Virus record (IMG/VR): IMGVR_UViG_2778261223_000007
Location: 12,132 to 76,131 of that record
Length of the DNA: 64,000 nucleotides
Source: a virus
Taxonomy: Duplodnaviria; Heunggongvirae; Uroviricota; Caudoviricetes
Reading direction: 5' to 3' (one strand)
Shown: piece after piece, positions 4,706 to 36,920 of the stretch
Numbering within the stretch: the stretch's first letter is position 1
Layout: each line of letters opens with the position of its first letter
Notes under the pieces: generated by a model
Told to the model about the DNA's origin: nothing
The model's database searches: none
Seen by the model: only the letters and a program-made list of their open reading frames with translations
Program-made: the position numbers and the translations under genes

Positions 4706-5152
4706 ATGGCTGAAAATTTAAAGGCAAGAGATGGTAACCGCCTGTATAAGGCACAATTGCTTTCCTACTATTATTCACGCCGCGCTGAGTCGGCGATCGG
4801 CAAAGGTGCGCGTTTTGTTATCTCTAAGGCGTATTGGTGCAAATCTAGTCTGGTAACTGCTAATGGTGCAGGAGGCTGGAATATAGCGGACATTCCACTC
4901 GATTTTAAATTGAGTGACGCTCAACAGTTTGCTGTGTCCGATCTGATATTGTCCAGCGTGGATGGGATTATCACTATCAATGCAGCCTTCCCACAAGAAA
5001 GAATGCCGGATAACACGCCTTACGATTTTAACACGCTTGTGCTTGTTGATGCTGAGGAACGGGCTTTTGGTGTGCTTTGCACCCAGCAAGATACCCTCTA
5101 TAAAGGTAAACGTTACAGTATTCTCATGACAATCGAGCAAGTTGAGGGTTGA
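4706..5152 (+). CDS. tail-fibre-associated protein (P1 R-like position)
   Basis: 148 aa, stop overlaps start of tail-fibre gene (ATGA-type coupling). Confidence 0.35.
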   Translation: MAENLKARDGNRLYKAQLLSYYYSRRAESAIGKGARFVISKAYWCKSSLVTANGAGGWNIADIPLDFKLSDAQQFAVSDLILSSVDGIITINAAFPQERMPDNTPYDFNTLVLVDAEERAFGVLCTQQDTLYKGKRYSILMTIEQVEG

Positions 5153-8100
5153 TTATGGGGGCTGATAAAACGAACAACATAATGACACTATCCTCTGGTG
5201 TCTCACAGCCTTTGCTTGCTGATGTTCAATATTTCGAACTCTATAGTAGTTCGGCTCTTAACAGAAAACTTAAAAATATTGTTTTGCCTGGCTTTTACTG
5301 TGGATTTGAACCAGTTCCCGGCACAGGGTTGAGTGTTCGTATAACTTCTGAAAACTCAGAAGGTAAAGGGGCTGCTTCAGTAGATGTAAATAATGTTCAG
5401 ATATCCGTTCAGCAAATAGAAGATGTGACTGTCTCGGTAAAGGCTGGGGCTACCAACATTATTGTGCTGGAAGCCAATTTTGAACATGGTGTAAAAACGA
5501 CACAGGTAGATAGCGCATCTTCTGTCAGTGCTGCAAGAATTTACGCGCGTACGGACAATACTATTGGGCAGAATCAAATTGAATTATGTCGAGTTATCGT
5601 GCCTAACGGCGCAACGGCTGTGACTAAAGAAATGATTGTGCTTAAATACCGGGTTAACCGTGCTGTTGGTGTCGAATTCTCTAATGAAATAAGCAGTACA
5701 GAAGAAAGAAAAGCGGCTACACCTCTGGCTGTCAAAACTCTCCATGATTTGGTTGATACAAAAGCTCCGCTCGATAGTCCGCATCTGTCAGGTACGCCGA
5801 CTTCGCCGACACCTGAACCCGGTACAAACAACACACAGATCGCAAATGCGGCCTTTGTCTATGCTGCTATAAATGCGCTTATCAATGGTGCTCCGGGAAC
5901 GATGGACACGCTGAAAGAAATAGCGGCTGCGATCAATAACGACCCGAATTTCAGCACAACTATCAACAATGCCCTGGCTCTTAAAGCTCCTTTGGCAAGC
6001 CCGGCGTTCACAGGTACGCCGACAGCACCTACGGCCTCACAAGGCACAAATAGCACGCAGATTGCAAATACAGCCTTTGTTAAGGCAGCTATAACGGCAC
6101 TTATCAACGGTGCGCCTGGCACACTGGATACGCTGAAAGAAATAGCGGCTGCGATCAATAACGACCCGAATTTCAGCACAACTATCAACAATGCCCTGGC
6201 TCTCAAAGCGCCTTTGGCAAGCCCTGCATTAACGGGTGTCCCTACTGCGCCGACCGCCGCACAGGGCACAAATAATACGCAGATTGCTACGACCGCTTAT
6301 GTAAGAGCTGCCATATCCGCATTGGTTGGTTCATCACCAGAAGCTCTTGATACCCTGAATGAGCTTGCCGCAGCACTTGGCAATGACCCGAACTTTGCGA
6401 CAACAATGACAAATGCGCTGGCAGGCAAACAGCCTCTGGATGCAACTTTAACCGCGCTCGCTGGCCTTGCGACTGGTGCAAACAAACTGCCTTATTTCAC
6501 CGGTAAGGATACGGTAGCGCAGACTGATTTAACGTCAGTCGGTCGCGATATTCTGGCTAAAACAAGCACACTGGCCGTTATCCAATACCTTGGTTTAAGA
6601 GAACTCGGTACCAGTGGTGAAAAGATCCCCCTGTTGAGTACGGCTAACACATGGAGTGCGCGCCAGACTTTCAATGGCGGGATCACCGGGGCGCTGACAG
6701 GGAACGCCGACACCGCGACGAAATTGAAAACAGCCATAAACATTAATGGCGTCAGGTTCGATGGTTCGGCTGACATTAATATCAATACTCTGGTATCGCG
6801 TGGTCGCGTAACGGCTCTGGGGGCGAATGCACAGGGGACATCCGGGATTCAGCTGTATGAGGCATACAACAATGGCTATCCTTCCCCCTATGGCAATGTG
6901 CTTCACCTTAAAGGTGCCACCGCTGCTGGCGAAGGTGAATTATTCATTGGCTGGAGTGGCTCGAGCGGTGACCATGCGCCCGTACATATCCGTTCGCGGC
7001 GTGATACTGATTCTGCCAACTGGTCTGAATGGGCACAGGTCTATACGTCAAAAGATTCAGTTCCCGGCGTTAATGCCAAAGGGAATCAGGATACCTCTGG
7101 TAATGCGGCTACAGCGACCAAATTGCAGACGGCGTGTACTATCAACGGTGTCTCGTTTGATGGTTCTAAAAACATTGAGCTAACGGCGGAAGATTTAAAT
7201 CTTGAGCAAACCGTAGAATTAGCCGCAGGAGCATTGCAGAAAAACCAGAACGGTGCAGATATTCCGAATAAAGATAAATTCATACAAAACACAGGGGCCT
7301 GTCGTGCATTTAGCGGTCAGACTGATATCGATGGTTCACAAGGTGAATGGTCGACAGTTGCATTTATCTCGTGGCTGGAGAATAACGGAGCTTTCCGACA
7401 TCCATACTGGATGTGTAAAGGGTCATGGTCCTATGCCAGAAACAGGGTTATTACGGATACCGGTTGTGGAAATATCTGCCTTGCCGGAGCCGTGATTGAG
7501 GTTATGGGAACCCGCGGCGCAATGACCATACGCGTTACCACGCCGAGCACGTCCAGCGGTGGCGGAATCACTAACGCTCAATTCACTTATATTAATCATG
7601 GTGATGCTTACGCTCCTGGCTGGCGACGAGACTACAACACGAAAAACCAGCAGCCTGCATTTGCTTTAGGGCAAACAGGACGCAGGGTCGCAAATGATAA
7701 AGCTGTTGGCTGGAACTGGAATAGCGGCGTTTATGATGCAGATATCAGTGGCGCATCGACATTAATCCTCCACTTTAATATGAATGCGGGGAGTTGCCCT
7801 GCTGTACAGTTCCGCGTGAATTACAGAAATGGCGGTATCTTTTATCGTTCAGCGCGTGATGGTTATGGCTTTGAAGCTAACTGGTCAGAGTTTTACACCA
7901 CAACACGCAAACCCTCTGCGGGAGATGTTGGTGCATATACGCAGGCAGAATGTAACTCAAGGTTTATTACAGGTATTCGCCTTGGCGGTCTGTCATCTGT
8001 TAAGACATGGAATGGTCCTGGCTGGTCTGACAGGTCAGGTTATGTCGTTACTGGTTCAGTTAACGGAAACCGTGATGAATTAATTGATACAACTCAGGCA

Positions 8101-8154
8101 AGGCCAATTCAGTATTGCATTAATGGAACGTGGTATAACGCGGGGAGTATTTAA
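5149..8154 (+). CDS. tail fibre protein S (constant part 5149..6590 plus variable part Sv in current orientation)
   Basis: 1001 aa; three tandem 74-aa repeats (NNDPNFSTTINNALALKAPLASP...) typical of phage fibres; the cix crossover site lies inside the gene at 6578..6603; followed by tail-fibre assembly gene. Confidence 0.85.
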   Translation: MIMGADKTNNIMTLSSGVSQPLLADVQYFELYSSSALNRKLKNIVLPGFYCGFEPVPGTGLSVRITSENSEGKGAASVDVNNVQISVQQIEDVTVSVKAGATNIIVLEANFEHGVKTTQVDSASSVSAARIYARTDNTIGQNQIELCRVIVPNGATAVTKEMIVLKYRVNRAVGVEFSNEISSTEERKAATPLAVKTLHDLVDTKAPLDSPHLSGTPTSPTPEPGTNNTQIANAAFVYAAINALINGAPGTMDTLKEIAAAINNDPNFSTTINNALALKAPLASPAFTGTPTAPTASQGTNSTQIANTAFVKAAITALINGAPGTLDTLKEIAAAINNDPNFSTTINNALALKAPLASPALTGVPTAPTAAQGTNNTQIATTAYVRAAISALVGSSPEALDTLNELAAALGNDPNFATTMTNALAGKQPLDATLTALAGLATGANKLPYFTGKDTVAQTDLTSVGRDILAKTSTLAVIQYLGLRELGTSGEKIPLLSTANTWSARQTFNGGITGALTGNADTATKLKTAININGVRFDGSADININTLVSRGRVTALGANAQGTSGIQLYEAYNNGYPSPYGNVLHLKGATAAGEGELFIGWSGSSGDHAPVHIRSRRDTDSANWSEWAQVYTSKDSVPGVNAKGNQDTSGNAATATKLQTACTINGVSFDGSKNIELTAEDLNLEQTVELAAGALQKNQNGADIPNKDKFIQNTGACRAFSGQTDIDGSQGEWSTVAFISWLENNGAFRHPYWMCKGSWSYARNRVITDTGCGNICLAGAVIEVMGTRGAMTIRVTTPSTSSGGGITNAQFTYINHGDAYAPGWRRDYNTKNQQPAFALGQTGRRVANDKAVGWNWNSGVYDADISGASTLILHFNMNAGSCPAVQFRVNYRNGGIFYRSARDGYGFEANWSEFYTTTRKPSAGDVGAYTQAECNSRFITGIRLGGLSSVKTWNGPGWSDRSGYVVTGSVNGNRDELIDTTQARPIQYCINGTWYNAGSI
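5761..6426 (+). repeat. three tandem copies of a 222-bp (74-codon) unit inside tail fibre gene S
   Basis: Copies start at 5761, 5983 and 6205; copies 1 and 2 share long identical nucleotide stretches, copy 3 is diverged. Confidence 0.85.
6578..6603. other. cix-like crossover site (left): TTATCCAATACC-TT-GGTTTAAGAGAA
   Basis: 26-bp site of Gin/Hin/Cin type inside the fibre gene at the constant/variable junction; core dinucleotide TT matches the right site in inverted orientation. Confidence 0.7.
6592..6767. repeat. inverted repeat, left arm (~176 bp) at the inner side of cixL
   Basis: Reverse complement of 10679..10854 with only a few mismatches; encodes the shared first ~60 residues of Sv and Sv'. 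Confidence 0.8.
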
Positions 8155-8156
8155 TT

Positions 8157-8690
8157 ATGATGCACTTAAAAAATATTACTGCTGGCAACCCTAAAACAAA
8201 AGAGCAATACCAGCTAACAAAGCAATTTAACATCAAATGGCTTTATTCAGATGATGGAAAAAACTGGTATGAGGAACAAAAGAATTTCCAGCCAGACACT
8301 TTGAAAATGGTCTATGACCATAACGGCGTTATTATTTGTATTGAAAAGGATGTTTCAGCAATTAATCCGGAAGGCGCAAGCGTCGTTGAATTACCTGATA
8401 TTACAGCAAATCGCCGGGCTGATATTTCGGGTAAATGGATGTTCAAAGATGGCGTAGTGATAAAGCGAACTTATACCGAGGAGGAACAGAGGCAGCAGGC
8501 AGAGAATGAAAAGCAAAGCCTGTTGCAACTTGTCAGGGATAAAACCCAGCTATGGGACTCACAGCTACGGCTGGGTATCATTTCCGACGAGAATAAACAA
8601 AAATTAACCGAGTGGATGCTCTATGCGCAGAAGGTCGAATCCACAGACACCTCCAGCCTGCCAGTAACGTTTCCAGAACAACCAGAATGA
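8157..8690 (+). CDS. tail fibre assembly protein U
   Basis: 177 aa; N-terminus [22 protein letters not shown] is the classic Tfa/U-type start; immediately after the fibre gene. Confidence 0.8.
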   Translation: MMHLKNITAGNPKTKEQYQLTKQFNIKWLYSDDGKNWYEEQKNFQPDTLKMVYDHNGVIICIEKDVSAINPEGASVVELPDITANRRADISGKWMFKDGVVIKRTYTEEEQRQQAENEKQSLLQLVRDKTQLWDSQLRLGIISDENKQKLTEWMLYAQKVESTDTSSLPVTFPEQPE

Positions 8691-8694
8691 AACA

Positions 8695-8720
8695 AGGCCC
8701 GCTATCGGGCCTTAATTTTT
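8695..8720. terminator. bidirectional rho-independent terminator between convergent U and U'
   Basis: Hairpin AGGCCCG-CTAT-CGGGCCT followed by TAATTTTT. Confidence 0.6.
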
Positions 8721-9249
8721 ATTCAGGCTTTTGTGGCCATTCAGGATTTGCCGTATCCACACGGCTGACCAGAACACTATAGCGTTCCCATGACTCCAGT
8801 CGTGCGCGTTCCTCATCCGTCGCCATATTCAGCCTGACAGCGCGTTCCAGTGGCTGAATAACGTTTTCTGCTTCGGAAAGTAACGCGGCCTTTTGTGATT
8901 CGGCCTGTTGTTGTTGCTCGTCTGCCGTATAAATCCGTTTAACCACAGCTCCGTCCTTAAACATCCACTTCCCTGAATCATCGGCACGACGATTGGCTGT
9001 TATATCTGGAATCTCAACGACGCTAAAGCCTTCGGGATTAAGCGTTGAGGCATCTTTGGTTATGGCAACAATAATATTATTTTCGTCGTATACAATCTTT
9101 ATGGTGTCGTCCTGAAAGTTATTTACTTCTTCATACCAGTTTTTACCGTCTTCGGACCATAACCAGATAACATCAAAATTCTTTGTTAGCTGATATTGTT
9201 CTTTCGTTTTAGGATTTCCAGACTTAATATTTTTTAAATGCTGCATCAT
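8719..9249 (-). CDS. alternative tail fibre assembly protein U'
   Basis: 176 aa paralog of U on the opposite strand ([25 protein letters not shown]...), convergent with U inside the invertible segment. Confidence 0.8.
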
Positions 9250-10854
9250 TTACACCTGTGCGACGTTATACCATGTGCCATTGATGTATTTTTGTATTGG
9301 CCTGAAGATGGCTTCATCATCGCCATCTACTTCACCAATGATTCTTAATCCGGTAATTGCGTGTCCGGCTTTTTCATAACGACCACCACGCGCCATCAAT
9401 TGAACAACACGTGTGCCAAGTCGGACATCTCTCACATAGCGTGAGTCAAAATTGCCATAATTGCCGGGAATAACTTGCGCACCACAAAGCCAGTTACCGT
9501 TATTATCCATGTACGCCTGACCATCGGTGCCATTGGCTGTCCTTGAGTTATTAATCATGTAGATGCCAAATTGCTTGTTCCCCAGTCCACCTATCATGAA
9601 CTTTCGGTCGGCGTGATTCTGGCGAAGTAACGCCTGAGCGCTATCAGTGTTAACTATATTTTTCCCAAAGATAGCGTTGTTATCGCGCATCTGAATCCAC
9701 ATACCATTACTGCTGTTAATAGCAAAACGGTCTGAAAGTGTCTCCCCTGAAACATTAAGACCACGTCCCATCGAAACAGCGCCAGTAGCGTTATTAATCC
9801 ATAATGGCCTTAATCCGTTATAAGTCCCCATGTTGTCACCGGAGTTTGTCAACATGAAGTATGTATTTGAACCATCATTACGAATAAAGAATCCGTAATT
9901 ACCATAAGCAATACGTAGGCCGTTTGCTGATTTTGATATGACTTCGCCATTTACAATGGCATTGACAAGAACATACAAAGCATCCCATTTAAGATTCATC
10001 AGGTCTTTTGTTGTGGTACTTTGTTTGCTTCTCCATTTGAAATATTCATTGCCGTTGTCGCCTGTCTCAAACCACATGTATGAATCAGTATCGCTGTCGG
10101 CATCATTTTTAAAACCAATCTTCGCCCAGTCAGTATTCCGAATCCAGGCAAGGATTGAGTCGTTTTCAAAAGTAAGTCCACCGGACAAGGTATCGCCTGT
10201 CTTTTGAACCGCGTTATCAGCCTTGTTTACCGTTTCCTGTAGATTTAAATCTTCCGCCGTTAGCTCAATATTTTTAGAACCGTCAAACGAGACGCCGTTG
10301 ATAGTACATGCTATCTGCAATTTGGTCGCTGTAGCCGCATTACCAGAGGTGTCCTGATTCCCTTTAGCATTGACGCCGGGAACTGAATCTTTTGACGTAT
10401 AGATCTGTGCCCACTCGGACCATGCCGCAGCAGTGCTATCTCTTTTGGATCGAATGAAAGCAGGTGCATGAGCGCCATTTGTGCCACTCCAGCCAATGAA
10501 TAACTCACCTTCGCCAGCAGCGGTGGCACCTTTAAGGTGAAGCACATTGCCATAGGGGGAAGGGTAGCCATTGTTGTATGCCTCATACATCTGCAATCCA
10601 GTAGCAGCACCTTGCGTTGTACCGGTAAGCGCAGTAACGCGTCCTCTAGACGTAATTGTTGGTATCGAAATGTTCGTAGAACCATCGAACCTGACGCCAT
10701 TAATGTTTATGGCTGTTTTTAATTTCGTCGCGGTATCGGCGTTCCCTGTCAGCGCCCCGGTGATCCCGCCGTTGAAAGTCTGGCGTGCACTCCACGTGTT
10801 AGCCGTGCTCAACAGGGGGATCTTTTCACCGCTGGTACCGAGTTCTCTTAAACC
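9250..10854 (-). CDS. alternative tail fibre variable cassette Sv' (expressed only after inversion, no own promoter)
   Basis: Minus-strand frame is open from cixR to 9250; its first ~60 codons are identical to residues following the crossover point in S (STANTWSARQTFNGGITGALTGNADTATKLK...). Confidence 0.75.
   Translation of the reverse strand, partial: GLRELGTSGEKIPLLSTANTWSARQTFNGGITGALTGNADTATKLKTAININGVRFDGSTNISIPTITSRGRVTALTGTTQGAATGLQMYEAYNNGYPSPYGNVLHLKGATAAGEGELFIGWSGTNGAHAPAFIRSKRDSTAAAWSEWAQIYTSKDSVPGVNAKGNQDTSGNAATATKLQIACTINGVSFDGSKNIELTAEDLNLQETVNKADNAVQKTGDTLSGGLTFENDSILAWIRNTDWAKIGFKNDADSDTDSYMWFETGDNGNEYFKWRSKQSTTTKDLMNLKWDALYVLVNAIVNGEVISKSANGLRIAYGNYGFFIRNDGSNTYFMLTNSGDNMGTYNGLRPLWINNATGAVSMGRGLNVSGETLSDRFAINSSNGMWIQMRDNNAIFGKNIVNTDSAQALLRQNHADRKFMIGGLGNKQFGIYMINNSRTANGTDGQAYMDNNGNWLCGAQVIPGNYGNFDSRYVRDVRLGTRVVQLMARGGRYEKAGHAITGLRIIGEVDGDDEAIFRPIQKYINGTWYNVAQV
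10679..10854. repeat. inverted repeat, right arm (~176 bp)
   Basis: See left arm. Confidence 0.8.
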
Positions 10855-10868
10855 AAGGTTTAGGATTG
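10843..10868. other. cix-like crossover site (right): TTCTCTTAAACC-AA-GGTTTAGGATTG
   Basis: Inverted copy of the left site next to the 3' end of cin; resembles hix/gix consensus. Confidence 0.7.
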
Positions 10869-11420
10869 AAATGATGATGCCGGAAACTTCTTATAAAGCG
10901 TGGAAACAGCCACATCATAGATGATTGCAACCTGCTTACGAGGGATGCCCTTCTCCAGCAATCGCCGCATTTGCTGCCATGTTTCTTCTTGGTATTTAGG
11001 CCGACGCCCACCTATACGACCTTCTGCGCGAGCTGCATCAAGTCCAGCGCGTGTACGTTCAATGATAAGCTCACGTTCCATTTCTGCCAGCGCACCCATT
11101 ACGTGAAAGAAAAAGCGCCCCATTGGTGTACTGGTGTCGATGGAGTCAGTGAGACTCCGGAAGTTAATGCCTCTGTCACGCAGCTCTTCCACCAGCACAA
11201 CCAAGTGACGCATGCTGCGCCCAAGGCGATCTAACTTCCATACGACCAGGGTGTCACCTCTGGAAAGAATACGCAGAACCTTTTTTAACCCTGGGCGTTC
11301 AGCCTTTTTGCCGCTCGCCTTATCCTCAAAAATTAGCTCACATCCTGCGCTTTCAAGGGCGTTTCGTTGTAAAGCGGTGTTTTGGTCATTAGTTGATACG
11401 CGAATGTATCCAATAAGCAT
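10860..11420 (-). CDS. cin: serine DNA invertase (Cin/Gin/Hin/Pin family)
   Basis: 186 aa; MLIGYIRVSTNDQNT...VVWKLDRLGRSMRHL...SIDTSTPMGRFFFHVMGALAEMERELIIERT is near-identical in pattern to Pin/Cin invertases; adjacent to cixR. Confidence 0.9.
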   Translation of the reverse strand: MLIGYIRVSTNDQNTALQRNALESAGCELIFEDKASGKKAERPGLKKVLRILSRGDTLVVWKLDRLGRSMRHLVVLVEELRDRGINFRSLTDSIDTSTPMGRFFFHVMGALAEMERELIIERTRAGLDAARAEGRIGGRRPKYQEETWQQMRRLLEKGIPRKQVAIIYDVAVSTLYKKFPASSFQS

Positions 11421-11852: not shown

Positions 11853-12298
11853 TGGGTAACTTTGGAAATTATTTCATTTTTATCATGGCATTTGTTGCCA
11901 TCATTGACCGTTTCATTTTTCGTCGCAAGAGTGTTGAGATTTTGAGTATTGGTGACGCTGTAGTGAAAGAATCCGCTATAGCATTTCCTGTTTCGCTACG
12001 TGTTAAGCGAAGCTGGGTGAGCAATGCTCAAATCGAATATTGGTTGCAAGACCTGAAAAATCCATCTGTGGTTATTTCAGGGAAAACGCGACCAGTTGAC
12101 GCCTCAAAACGCGGTGAGAGAGAAGAGTATTTGCTCATCGATACGAAATATCTTGAGCCAACGAAGTGGGATCTGAAAGTCACATTGACTAACGGTAACT
12201 GCCGACTGAATCCGCTTTATCGCATTTTCCCTATCAATGACTGCATAGAGCGCCAATTTACGATCGAAAAGCGTGAAGGAGACTGGGATGTCAAATAA
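11852..12298 (+). CDS. membrane-anchored protein (P1 LydB-like by position and size)
   Basis: 148 aa, N-terminal hydrophobic helix; start overlaps upstream stop. Confidence 0.35.
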   Translation: MGNFGNYFIFIMAFVAIIDRFIFRRKSVEILSIGDAVVKESAIAFPVSLRVKRSWVSNAQIEYWLQDLKNPSVVISGKTRPVDASKRGEREEYLLIDTKYLEPTKWDLKVTLTNGNCRLNPLYRIFPINDCIERQFTIEKREGDWDVK

Positions 12299-35153: not shown

Positions 35154-35229
35154 GATGGTGTAGCTCAGCGGTTAGAGCGGTTGACTGTTAATCAACGGGT
35201 CGATGGTTCAAATCCATCCACCATCGCCA
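35154..35229 (+). tRNA. tRNA-Asn (anticodon GTT)
   Basis: 76 nt; acceptor stem GATGGTG/CACCATC, anticodon loop CTGTTAA, T-loop TTCAAAT, 3' CCA encoded. Confidence 0.85.
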
Positions 35230-35231
35230 AT

Positions 35232-35307
35232 GCCGGTTTAGCTCAGTTGGTAGAGCGCCTGCCTTGTAAGCAGGATGTCAGCGGTTCGAGTCCGTTAATC
35301 GGCACCA
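35232..35307 (+). tRNA. tRNA-Thr (anticodon TGT)
   Basis: 76 nt; GCCGGTTTAGCTCAGTTGGTAGAGC..., anticodon loop CTTGTAA, T-loop TTCGAGT, 3' CCA. Confidence 0.85.
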
Positions 35308-35308
35308 G

Positions 35309-35395
35309 CACAACAGGTAAGGGTATTTTGCGACGTCGGAGATCGCCGAGCTTGGCAGAGGGTTCGAATCCCTACGAAGTACCCTTACCGTTGTG
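35309..35395 (+). ncRNA. tRNA-like element: T-arm consensus (GGTTCGAATCC) inside an extended 16-bp hairpin
   Basis: Arms CACAACAGGTAAGGGTA and TACCCTTACCGTTGTG are reverse complements; cannot be folded into a canonical cloverleaf by eye. Confidence 0.3.
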
Positions 35396-35772
35396 ATGAA
35401 GTGCAGCTCTTTGAAGCAACCAGAAGATAAGCATCTGGCTTCACAACATAAACCGCAGGAACGACCAATAAACGGTAGTCCGTACGGAGAACACCCCGTT
35501 GAGGAAGAGGCCTGGCCGGAACCGTAACCGGCACTACAACGTTGAGAACACTGGCGTAACGGGGTCATATCCCAATCTACGAATAAATGTTGCGTTGCAG
35601 CGTGACAACCAGTGTTCTCAACGTTGTGGTGGATTCGCAGGCTGATGCGATAGCTTTCTTGGATGTTAGGGAAATGCGGCCGCAAATCTTCCCTTTCGCG
35701 AGCGGTGATCGTCCGTAGTCCTAATTGGCTGCACCGTATGCCGGAGATTCAGTACCGGCCACCACAACGGCC

Positions 35773-35859
35773 GGAGAGTAGGGCGCATGGTGCTCAAGCG
35801 GTCTTGAAAACCGTCCCATTGCGCAAGCGATGATGGTTCGATTCCATTACTCTCCGCCA
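35773..35859 (+). tRNA. type II tRNA, Ser-like (anticodon TGA), possibly degenerate D-arm
   Basis: 87 nt; acceptor GGAGAGT/ACTCTCC + G + CCA; anticodon arm GCGGTCTTGAAAACCGT resembles E. coli serT; long variable arm; T-loop TTCGATT. Confidence 0.5.
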
Positions 35860-36126
35860 GCGCAACGTTAAGAGTATTTGGCTAATTAAGCGAATGCCGG
35901 AAGCAGAACCGGATCACCAAATGCGTACAGGCGTCATCGCCGCCCAGCCAGCCAAGTGCTCTTACCATTGCGGTGAATGCGGCTAAGCGCACGCGGAACA
36001 GTTAAAACAATCCTCCTTAGTGGTTAAGTCAAAAATCCCGGCGTTAATTGTTAACTGGTTAACGTCACCTGGAGGCACCAGGCACCGCAACCTAATAAAT
36101 ACGTCATGTTTATTGAGGGATAACCA

Positions 36127-36561
36127 ATGTTCGGTAAATTTTTCGGTAAGAAAGTCGCTTCAGCAAAAGTAGAGCTGAAAAGGGTTGAGAATCGCGATCT
36201 GATGGAGGCCATTATCGGTGGCTGTTTGTTGGTGTCTGCCGCAGATGGTGAAATCGAAAAGGAAGAAACAGCGAAACTTGATCAGCTTGTCCGCTCTAAT
36301 CCTCGCTTAAGTCATTTTGGCAACGAAATTACCGCAACAATCACCCGTTTTACTGAGCAACTGGAAGCTGGTTTCCGTGTTGGTCGCATGAATATCCTTC
36401 GCGAAATTGAAGATATCAAAAATGATCCAAAAGAAGCGGAAGAAGTATTCGTTAACATGCTGACGATTGCAGAAGCGGACGGTGAAATCGAGCCAGCAGA
36501 ACACAAAGTACTGGAAGAAGTAGGCCGTCGTTTGGGCCTTCGTGTGGAAGATTATCTGTAA
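36127..36561 (+). CDS. tciA: TerB-like protein (tellurite-resistance/colicin-immunity family, P1 TciA-like)
   Basis: 144 aa; two repeats of the (A/E)ADGEIE motif (SAADGEIEKEE ... AEADGEIEPAE) typical of TerB; embedded among the tRNAs as in P1. Confidence 0.7.
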   Translation: MFGKFFGKKVASAKVELKRVENRDLMEAIIGGCLLVSAADGEIEKEETAKLDQLVRSNPRLSHFGNEITATITRFTEQLEAGFRVGRMNILREIEDIKNDPKEAEEVFVNMLTIAEADGEIEPAEHKVLEEVGRRLGLRVEDYL

Positions 36562-36725
36562 TGATTGGCAAGGCGCGTATTGCGTGCGCCATTGGTTTTC
36601 TCGTTTTGTCCGTGCTGGTGGATTTCACCAGCAAAGTGATGTCGGTGTTGGCTGATGGGGCACTGGTTTCAGTAGCTGTGGTATTGCTATTGCCGATTAT
36701 TAAAGCTGCGTTCAGGAACTCATGA
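36561..36725 (+). CDS. small hydrophobic protein (TciB-like position)
   Basis: 54 aa, ATG overlaps tciA stop; two predicted transmembrane stretches. Not in ORF track (below 60 aa). Confidence 0.35.
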   Translation: MIGKARIACAIGFLVLSVLVDFTSKVMSVLADGALVSVAVVLLLPIIKAAFRNS

Positions 36726-36835
36726 TGGATTTTTGGACGTATATTGATAAGAACCCTGGATGGTCTTTGCTATTTCTGCTTGTGATCGTATACGGAGTAG
36801 AACAAGTAGCGAAGAATCTCAGGCGTCGAAAATAA
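36722..36835 (+). CDS. small hydrophobic protein (TciC-like position)
   Basis: 37 aa, overlaps upstream stop; MMDFWTYIDKNPGWSLLFLLVIVYGVEQVAKNLRRRK. Confidence 0.3.
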   Translation: MMDFWTYIDKNPGWSLLFLLVIVYGVEQVAKNLRRRK

Positions 36836-36844
36836 AAACTAATT

Positions 36845-36920
36845 GGCCCCTTAGCTCAGTGGTTAGAGCTGGCGACTCATAATCGCACGGTCACCGGTTC
36901 AAGTCCGGTAGGGGCCACCA
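36845..36920 (+). tRNA. tRNA-Ile2 (anticodon CAT, lysidine type) or tRNA-Met
   Basis: 76 nt, near-identical to E. coli ileX over most of its length (GGCCCCTTAGCTCAGTGGTTAGAGC.GGCGACTCATAATCGC...GGTTCAAGTCC...GGGGCCACCA). Confidence 0.85.

Follow-up and report, generated by a model that had tools for sequence, protein, structure and literature searches.

The stretch of DNA examined here (hereafter the window: 64,000 nucleotides (nt), positions 12,132 to 76,131 of the phage record IMGVR_UViG_2778261223_000007) carries a tail-fibre gene corresponding to gene S of phage P1, in whose constant part, Sc, three 222-base pair (bp) units follow one another head to tail. We consider it highly probable (roughly 0.85) that these units are recombining copies of the b-type module of P1, a 74-residue module of a trimeric fibre shaft. 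By sequence comparison, the repeat is the one already annotated as 'repeated elements b1/b2' in P1 gene S, and it is present here as a three-copy allele. Out-of-register homologous recombination between units would add or remove whole modules while preserving the reading frame, because the unit length is a multiple of three and identical tracts of 45-74 nt are available. What acts here is ordinary recombination between repeats of a modular fibre protein, and no new mechanism is invoked. The repeat is already known from P1, and the census and junction analysis reported below may be regarded as a small addition rather than a discovery.

The three-unit array in the constant part of gene S

The gene, its two parts and the elements of the array are located as follows, in window coordinates (ORF, open reading frame; aa, amino acids; HMM, hidden Markov model).

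5155..8154, + strand: tail-fibre gene S, 999 aa from the ATG at 5155 (the mechanically called ORF, 5149..8154, starts at the TTG at 5149 and has 1001 codons)
~5155-6591, + strand: Sc, the constant part of S
~6592-8154, + strand: Sv, the expressed variable part of S
5674..5769, + strand: single Phage_fiber_2 motif (PF03406; Pfam, aa 176-207 of the ORF, E 2.4e-7)
5761..5982, + strand: array unit 1, 74 aa, D6 unit-1 type, HMM score 144
5983..6204, + strand: array unit 2, 74 aa, the extra middle unit
6205..6426, + strand: array unit 3, 74 aa, the terminal unit, of P1 b2 / D6 unit-2 type
5908..5981, + strand: 74-nt tract identical to 6130-6203 (exact-match scan), the longest substrate for unequal recombination within the array
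6130..6203, + strand: partner of the 74-nt tract (exact-match scan)

A GAGGG ribosome-binding site precedes the ATG at 5155, which is also the start used in the D6 annotation (MGADK), and the gene product is matched by PHROG tail-fibre families. An earlier reading, made from the sequence alone, had proposed three tandem 222-bp units of 74 residues each that begin at 5761, 5983 and 6205, and in-register comparison bears this out. All three units are 222 nt long, are arranged head to tail and lie in frame 0 of the ORF at 5149..8154. Units 1 and 2 are 79.7% identical in DNA and 82% in protein, units 2 and 3 are 66.2% and 70% identical, and units 1 and 3 are 58.1% and 62% identical. The neighbouring 222-nt blocks, compared in the same register, fall to chance level (27-32% for DNA and 4-12% for protein), and therefore the repeat is real and far above chance. 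Its placement in the constant part of the gene was likewise correct: the last unit stops at 6426, 154 nt short of cixR (~6581-6600), which marks the right-hand edge of the invertible C-segment.

The same reading had described copies 1 and 2 as near-identical in DNA. This description holds for the last 74 nt, which are fully identical, but not for the units as a whole, as the first 146 nt are only ~69% identical. Differences between units 1 and 2 are distributed over the three codon positions as 10/6/29, and this excess at third positions indicates purifying selection on the protein. Recent conversion within the array was considered as the source of the 74-nt identity and was set aside as doubtful, because D6 unit 1 and P1 b1 have almost the same 3' segment, which is thus conserved across lineages; site 5973, at which the window departs from D6, does match unit 2.

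Repeat-finding programs under-call the array. Tandem Repeats Finder reports 2.1 copies (5824-6287) and a second repeat finder reports two, because unit 3 is too diverged to be recognized by either; the third unit is demonstrated by the in-register comparison together with an HMM of the units.

The relationship with P1 can be read from GenBank entry M81956, which covers the P1 R-S region and in which b1 (1783-2004) and b2 (2005-2226) both lie in Sc; these features are repeated in NC_005856. When a 3-nt difference in the stated unit start is allowed for, unit 2 of the window is 89.2% identical to P1 b1. Unit 3 is 91.4% identical to P1 b2, 94.6% to D6 unit 2, 99.5% to unit 3 of census locus L086 and 97.7% to unit 3 of phage phi456. 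Unit 1 stands closer to D6 unit 1 (99.5% identity) than to P1 b1 (82%). The single PF03406 motif directly 5' of the array corresponds to the P1 repeated element 'a', which is annotated in M81956 as a0 and a1.

A second, shorter internal repeat is present further downstream, within Sv, where GNADTATKLKTAININGVRFDGSADI and GNAATATKLQTACTINGVSFDGSKNI (positions 6700-6789 and 7099-7188) are separated by ~133 residues.

The unit as a probable fibre-shaft module

Each unit comprises two sub-modules, of which the first is rich in Pro and Thr (APLxSPxxTGxPTAPTxxxGTNxTQIAxTAFV) and the second is helical (AAIxALxxxxPxxLDTLxELAAALxNDPNFxTT). A profile of 19 diverse units was searched against PDB sequences. 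Unit positions 2-39 match residues 131-168 of the phiTE long tail fibre (9CUY/9MJN, E 8e-7) and also the cyanophage A4 fibre (9K09, E 9e-7), and positions 23-72 match the gp4 tail collar fibre (9D93, E 2e-14) and also 80alpha FibU (6V8I, E 8e-6). By these profile matches, the first and second sub-modules correspond to the short beta-helix parts and the alpha-helical bundle or coiled-coil parts, respectively, of solved trimeric phage fibres. A structural description of trimeric fibre segments is available (PMC11972413). We infer that a unit contributes to the trimeric shaft one segment composed of a beta-helix and a helical bundle, in which case copy number would set the length of the proximal shaft; the change in shaft length put forward in the sequence-only reading is plausible. 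Each unit would add a fixed increment of a few nanometres, and receptor specificity would stay with the invertible Sv part.

No family in Pfam or NCBIfam models the 74-aa unit. Within the units, the ~42-residue PF03406 profile gives no match above its gathering score, and the only match in the gene barely overlaps unit 1. Weak matches to Acyl-CoA_ox_N, MtrD and L-lactate oxidase were rejected, as they fall below the cut-offs and stem from Ala/Thr-rich composition.

The module itself is very widespread. Searched against a library of 1.8 billion proteins, one unit finds 32,845 cluster representatives at E<=1e-3, and 37 PHROG families are matched as well. Fibres that contain the module come from Enterobacteriaceae, Pseudomonas, alphaproteobacteria and assorted metagenome-assembled genomes (MAGs). 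Among the best 148 matches, single proteins carry up to 9-11 full units, with head-to-tail runs of up to six. One protein of 6556 aa (P0121) holds 11 full units in dispersed positions. The halves of the unit (~1-40 and ~25-74) also occur separately or in a different order in fibres from Pseudomonas, alphaproteobacteria and MAGs.

Copy number, junctions and alternative explanations

A census was conducted by running an HMM of the three units on the ORFs of 164 loci from GTDB genomes, IMG/VR and phage records. Among the 34 P1- or D6-type arrays recovered, the window included, one unit was found twice, two units 25 times, three units six times and four units once. Sixty rows sampled at even spacing from the 405 plasmid records with a match yielded, from span differences, 39 arrays of two units, 11 of three and one of four; three further rows had a diverged first unit, and the one that was checked has two units. 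The array is carried by 391 of 5426 Escherichia coli RefSeq genomes, and among 60 of 399 E. coli RefSeq records ~46 have two units and 5-6 have three. The best 120 protein clusters include three proteins with one unit, 86 with two and 31 with three. Two copies are thus the commonest state among close relatives such as P1, P7 and D6 (for P7 and RCS47, two units are indicated by matches that fall 219 nt short of the query span), and three copies, as in the window and phi456, occur in roughly 10-20%. The comparison of relatives that the sequence-only reading had proposed clearly shows that copy number is not invariant: where P1 is annotated with two copies, the window has three, the family ranges from one to four, and the ORF stays open in every state.

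Most database copies of the fibre protein in the best 120 clusters are 'partial' and end soon after the array, a probable consequence of breaks in short-read assemblies at the invertible segment. In one close relative, the plasmid NZ_CP121358.1, the S gene is broken by an IS1203-family element, and this plasmid is presumably a defective prophage.

The junctions between units are informative about how these states arise. In the one-copy allele of locus L006 (E. coli SCPM-O-B-8794), nt 1-47 of b1 are joined to nt 48-222 of b2, with the crossover in 5 nt of identity. The middle unit of phi456 belongs to the reciprocal class, with ~80 nt of b2 type followed by b1 type. Alignment of phi456 with the two-copy contig L115 reveals one mismatch and one 222-nt gap, which can be placed anywhere in 45 nt of identity. 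Units 2 and 3 of the four-copy locus L105 differ by 1 nt, and those of the complete plasmid CP057742.1, which encodes an intact annotated fibre of 1045 aa and was checked unit by unit, differ by 3 nt. In locus L108, unit 1 carries from nt 98 onward the sequence of its own unit 2, including a private variant, and thus contains a conversion tract. These structures support in-frame unequal recombination between units, as judged from the sequences of the junctions. The expansion and contraction that the sequence-only reading had suggested is accordingly backed by fusion units, by a near-isogenic pair with a 222-nt gap and by near-identical middle units.

Recombination that depends on RecA in E. 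coli requires a minimum of roughly 25-30 nt of identity. At least one of the events described above used only ~5 nt of microhomology, a sign of slippage or illegitimate recombination.

The window genome is that of a D6-like phage-plasmid: of its first 25 kb, 88% aligns with phage D6 at 98% identity. On both sides of the array the sequence agrees fully with D6 (100% over 1200 nt upstream and ~250 nt downstream), whereas alignment across the array requires one 222-nt gap and 12 mismatches (at 5973, 5994, 6000, eight sites within 6237-6276, and 6381). This pattern of one gap and 12 substitutions indicates that the window genome is in essence D6 carrying a patch of ~5973-6276, possibly extending to 6381, from a three-copy allele. 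The patch spans the 3' end of unit 1 to the 5' part of the last unit, and brings in one extra middle unit. Unit 2, which has no counterpart in D6, is partly b2-like at its 5' end and P1 b1-like over the remainder; a simple in-situ duplication in D6 was rejected, because over nt 60-146 this unit is b1-like and not like D6 unit 1. The middle units of L086, L108 and L105 share 96-98% identity with it, and the same type is duplicated in four-copy arrays, with units 2 and 3 of CP057742.1 both having the amino-acid sequence of window unit 2. Because this middle-unit type, shared by L086, L108, L105 and CP057742.1, differs from that of phi456, three-copy arrays arose more than once. E. coli ETEC1706 holds both a three-copy D6-like plasmid (NZ_CP122910.1) and a two-copy P1-like plasmid (NZ_CP122909.1), and this co-residence provides an opportunity for the exchange of fibre segments between lineages.

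An ancient triplication that has since been fixed, with copy-number differences arising only when whole S alleles are swapped between phages, would account for the age of unit 3 (58-66% identical to units 1 and 2), for a middle-unit type that is common to several arrays at 96-98% identity and so points to a three-copy state inherited or transferred here, for the imported patch by which the window differs from D6, and for the co-residence of D6-like and P1-like plasmids in one strain. However, breakpoints fall inside units in L006 and in the middle unit of phi456, the near-isogenic pair of phi456 and L115 differs by exactly one unit and one mismatch, and adjacent units in four-copy arrays are only 1-3 nt apart. 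Together, these hybrid units, the near-isogenic pair and the near-identical neighbours require recombination from unit to unit. Junction analysis therefore largely refutes fixation of this kind as the sole explanation, and we regard it as improbable. That the copy-number differences could be assembly artefacts, created when repeats are collapsed or expanded in short-read assemblies, is suggested by the many partial S proteins in the databases, by contigs that break near the invertible segment and by the mixed source of IMG/VR contigs. Yet the units are 20-40% apart in DNA and easily resolved, and arrays of two, three and four copies with intact ORFs occur in complete circular plasmids and isolated phages (D6, P1, phi456 and CP057742.1), so that we give this explanation almost no credence.

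The array could also be viewed as a programmed, high-frequency switch, or contingency locus, that diversifies fibre length within phage populations and complements inversion by Cin. The changes are in-frame, the 74-nt perfect identity of units 1 and 2 exceeds the RecA minimum, and the array adjoins a known system of programmed variation. Contingency loci are built from short units that shift a reading frame or the spacing of a promoter, whereas the unit here is 222 nt, a multiple of three; moreover, there is neither a dedicated recombinase site nor a short-repeat tract, the two-copy state strongly dominates, and the substantial divergence of the units argues against frequent homogenizing exchange. 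A programmed switch is thus very improbable. Several points also weigh against our own reading, in which the units recombine as shaft modules. The exact donor of the window patch was not found, the best candidates being 96-99.5% identical per unit, and some copy-number differences may reflect whole alleles imported from other phages rather than change in situ. The evidence for recombination consists throughout of comparisons between genomes, and the censuses are samples that were mostly read from BLAST span differences, with few records verified unit by unit. Finally, the added length and the rigidity ascribed to each module are inferred, and an AlphaFold2 monomer model of the residues encoded by 5656-6648, built from a 22-sequence alignment, has a mean predicted local distance difference test (pLDDT) score of 36, with a periodic coil followed by helices as its only consistent feature.

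If recombining shaft modules are indeed what the array contains, the proximal shaft of P1- and D6-type fibres tolerates one to four copies of a 74-residue module, which could be useful for P1-based delivery vectors with varied fibre length. The array also offers a clean natural case of unequal recombination in which both reciprocal products are present in databases, and annotators gain a description of a very common module that lacks a Pfam or NCBIfam model. It is conceivable, although we consider it unlikely, that unit number serves as an adaptive knob for the reach or flexibility of the fibre, allowing one receptor-binding tip to operate across different thicknesses of O-antigen or capsule, and that selection maintains the polymorphism of two, three and four copies. 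If so, adaptive copy number would constitute a second layer of host-range variation that is independent of Cin inversion.

The invertible segment and comparison with known systems

The region downstream of the array contains the invertible C-segment and the genes associated with it.

6580-6777 / 10669-10866: inverted-repeat arms that bound the C-segment
~6581..6600, + strand: cixR, the right boundary of the C-segment; sequence read directly, colinear with the D6 cixR annotation
8157..8690, + strand: tail-fibre assembly protein U (PF02413, E 6e-37)
8719..9249, - strand: alternative assembly protein U' (PF02413, E 2e-37)
9250..10812, - strand: alternative variable part Sv', with a Gp34_trimer domain; 99.8% identical to D6, in inverted orientation
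~10846..10865, - strand: cixL, placed by the inverted-repeat arms and by direct reading of the sequence
10860..11420, - strand: cin invertase gene, 186 aa, positioned as in the P1, D6 and RCS47 annotations

The repeats do not lie between the cix sites, and thus are not among the features inverted by Cin. A link between the b repeats and Cin or cix was also considered. In M81956, the interval 2005-2226 is labelled both 'repeated element b2' and crossover site cixR; the second label seems to be an annotation error, since cixR lies ~150 nt further downstream in the P1 genome record, and the link was rejected on the same ground.

The C-segment (6592-10866) is 99.8% identical to that of D6 and is in the orientation opposite to the D6 GenBank record, such that the window genome expresses the parts annotated in D6 as Sv' and U'. 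Sv and Sv' have a 366-nt segment in common, inverted and 86% identical (6850-7215 versus 10228-10593), and U and U' have 351 nt in common at 70% identity (8153-8503 versus 8900-9250). These shared segments may serve as recombination substrates within the C-segment, apart from the cix sites. Elsewhere in the window, four transfer RNA genes (Asn-GTT, Thr-TGT, Ser-TGA and Met-CAT) are clustered on the + strand at 35154-36920.

Within the literature library that was searched, work on P1 and D6 tail fibres turned up nothing on copy-number variation of the b repeats. The closest known counterpart of the array is P1 b1/b2 itself, with which it shares the unit length (222 bp, 74 aa), the head-to-tail, in-frame order, homologous sequence and a position in Sc ~155-160 nt 5' of cixR (in P1, 162 nt of Sc follow b2). 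In contrast to P1, the window has three copies rather than two, its first unit is of D6 type, and its N-terminal domain is also of D6 type and lacks the a0/a1 duplication. Because this duplication is lacking, the first unit of the window begins at aa 203 and not at aa 252 as in P1. D6 (MF356679, in which orf35 is the S homologue) shares the operon layout R-S-U / U'-Sv'-cin, whereas its array has two units, and the window differs by the extra middle unit and by eight substitutions that cluster in the last unit, within its 5' part. The arrays of phi456 (OR339795) and of plasmid pRHB16-C11_5 (CP057742.1) employ the same module and the same principle of expansion, although phi456 has a P1-type N-terminus and an independent b2/b1 hybrid as its middle unit, and CP057742.1 has one copy more than the window.

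Beyond the P1 and D6 family, the fibres of phiTE (9CUY/9MJN), 9D93 and 6V8I are homologous in sequence to the unit's two sub-modules. Each of these solved fibres has only one sub-module or copy, however, and none covers the full 74-residue unit or a tandem array. A parallel at the level of architecture is provided by the type 1 tail fibres of Pseudomonas syringae tailocins, which are also made of repeated modules and are shortened by deletions of whole repeats (PMC12208367). There, the repeat is a shaft plus two knobs, and the likeness to the array described here is one of modular principle.

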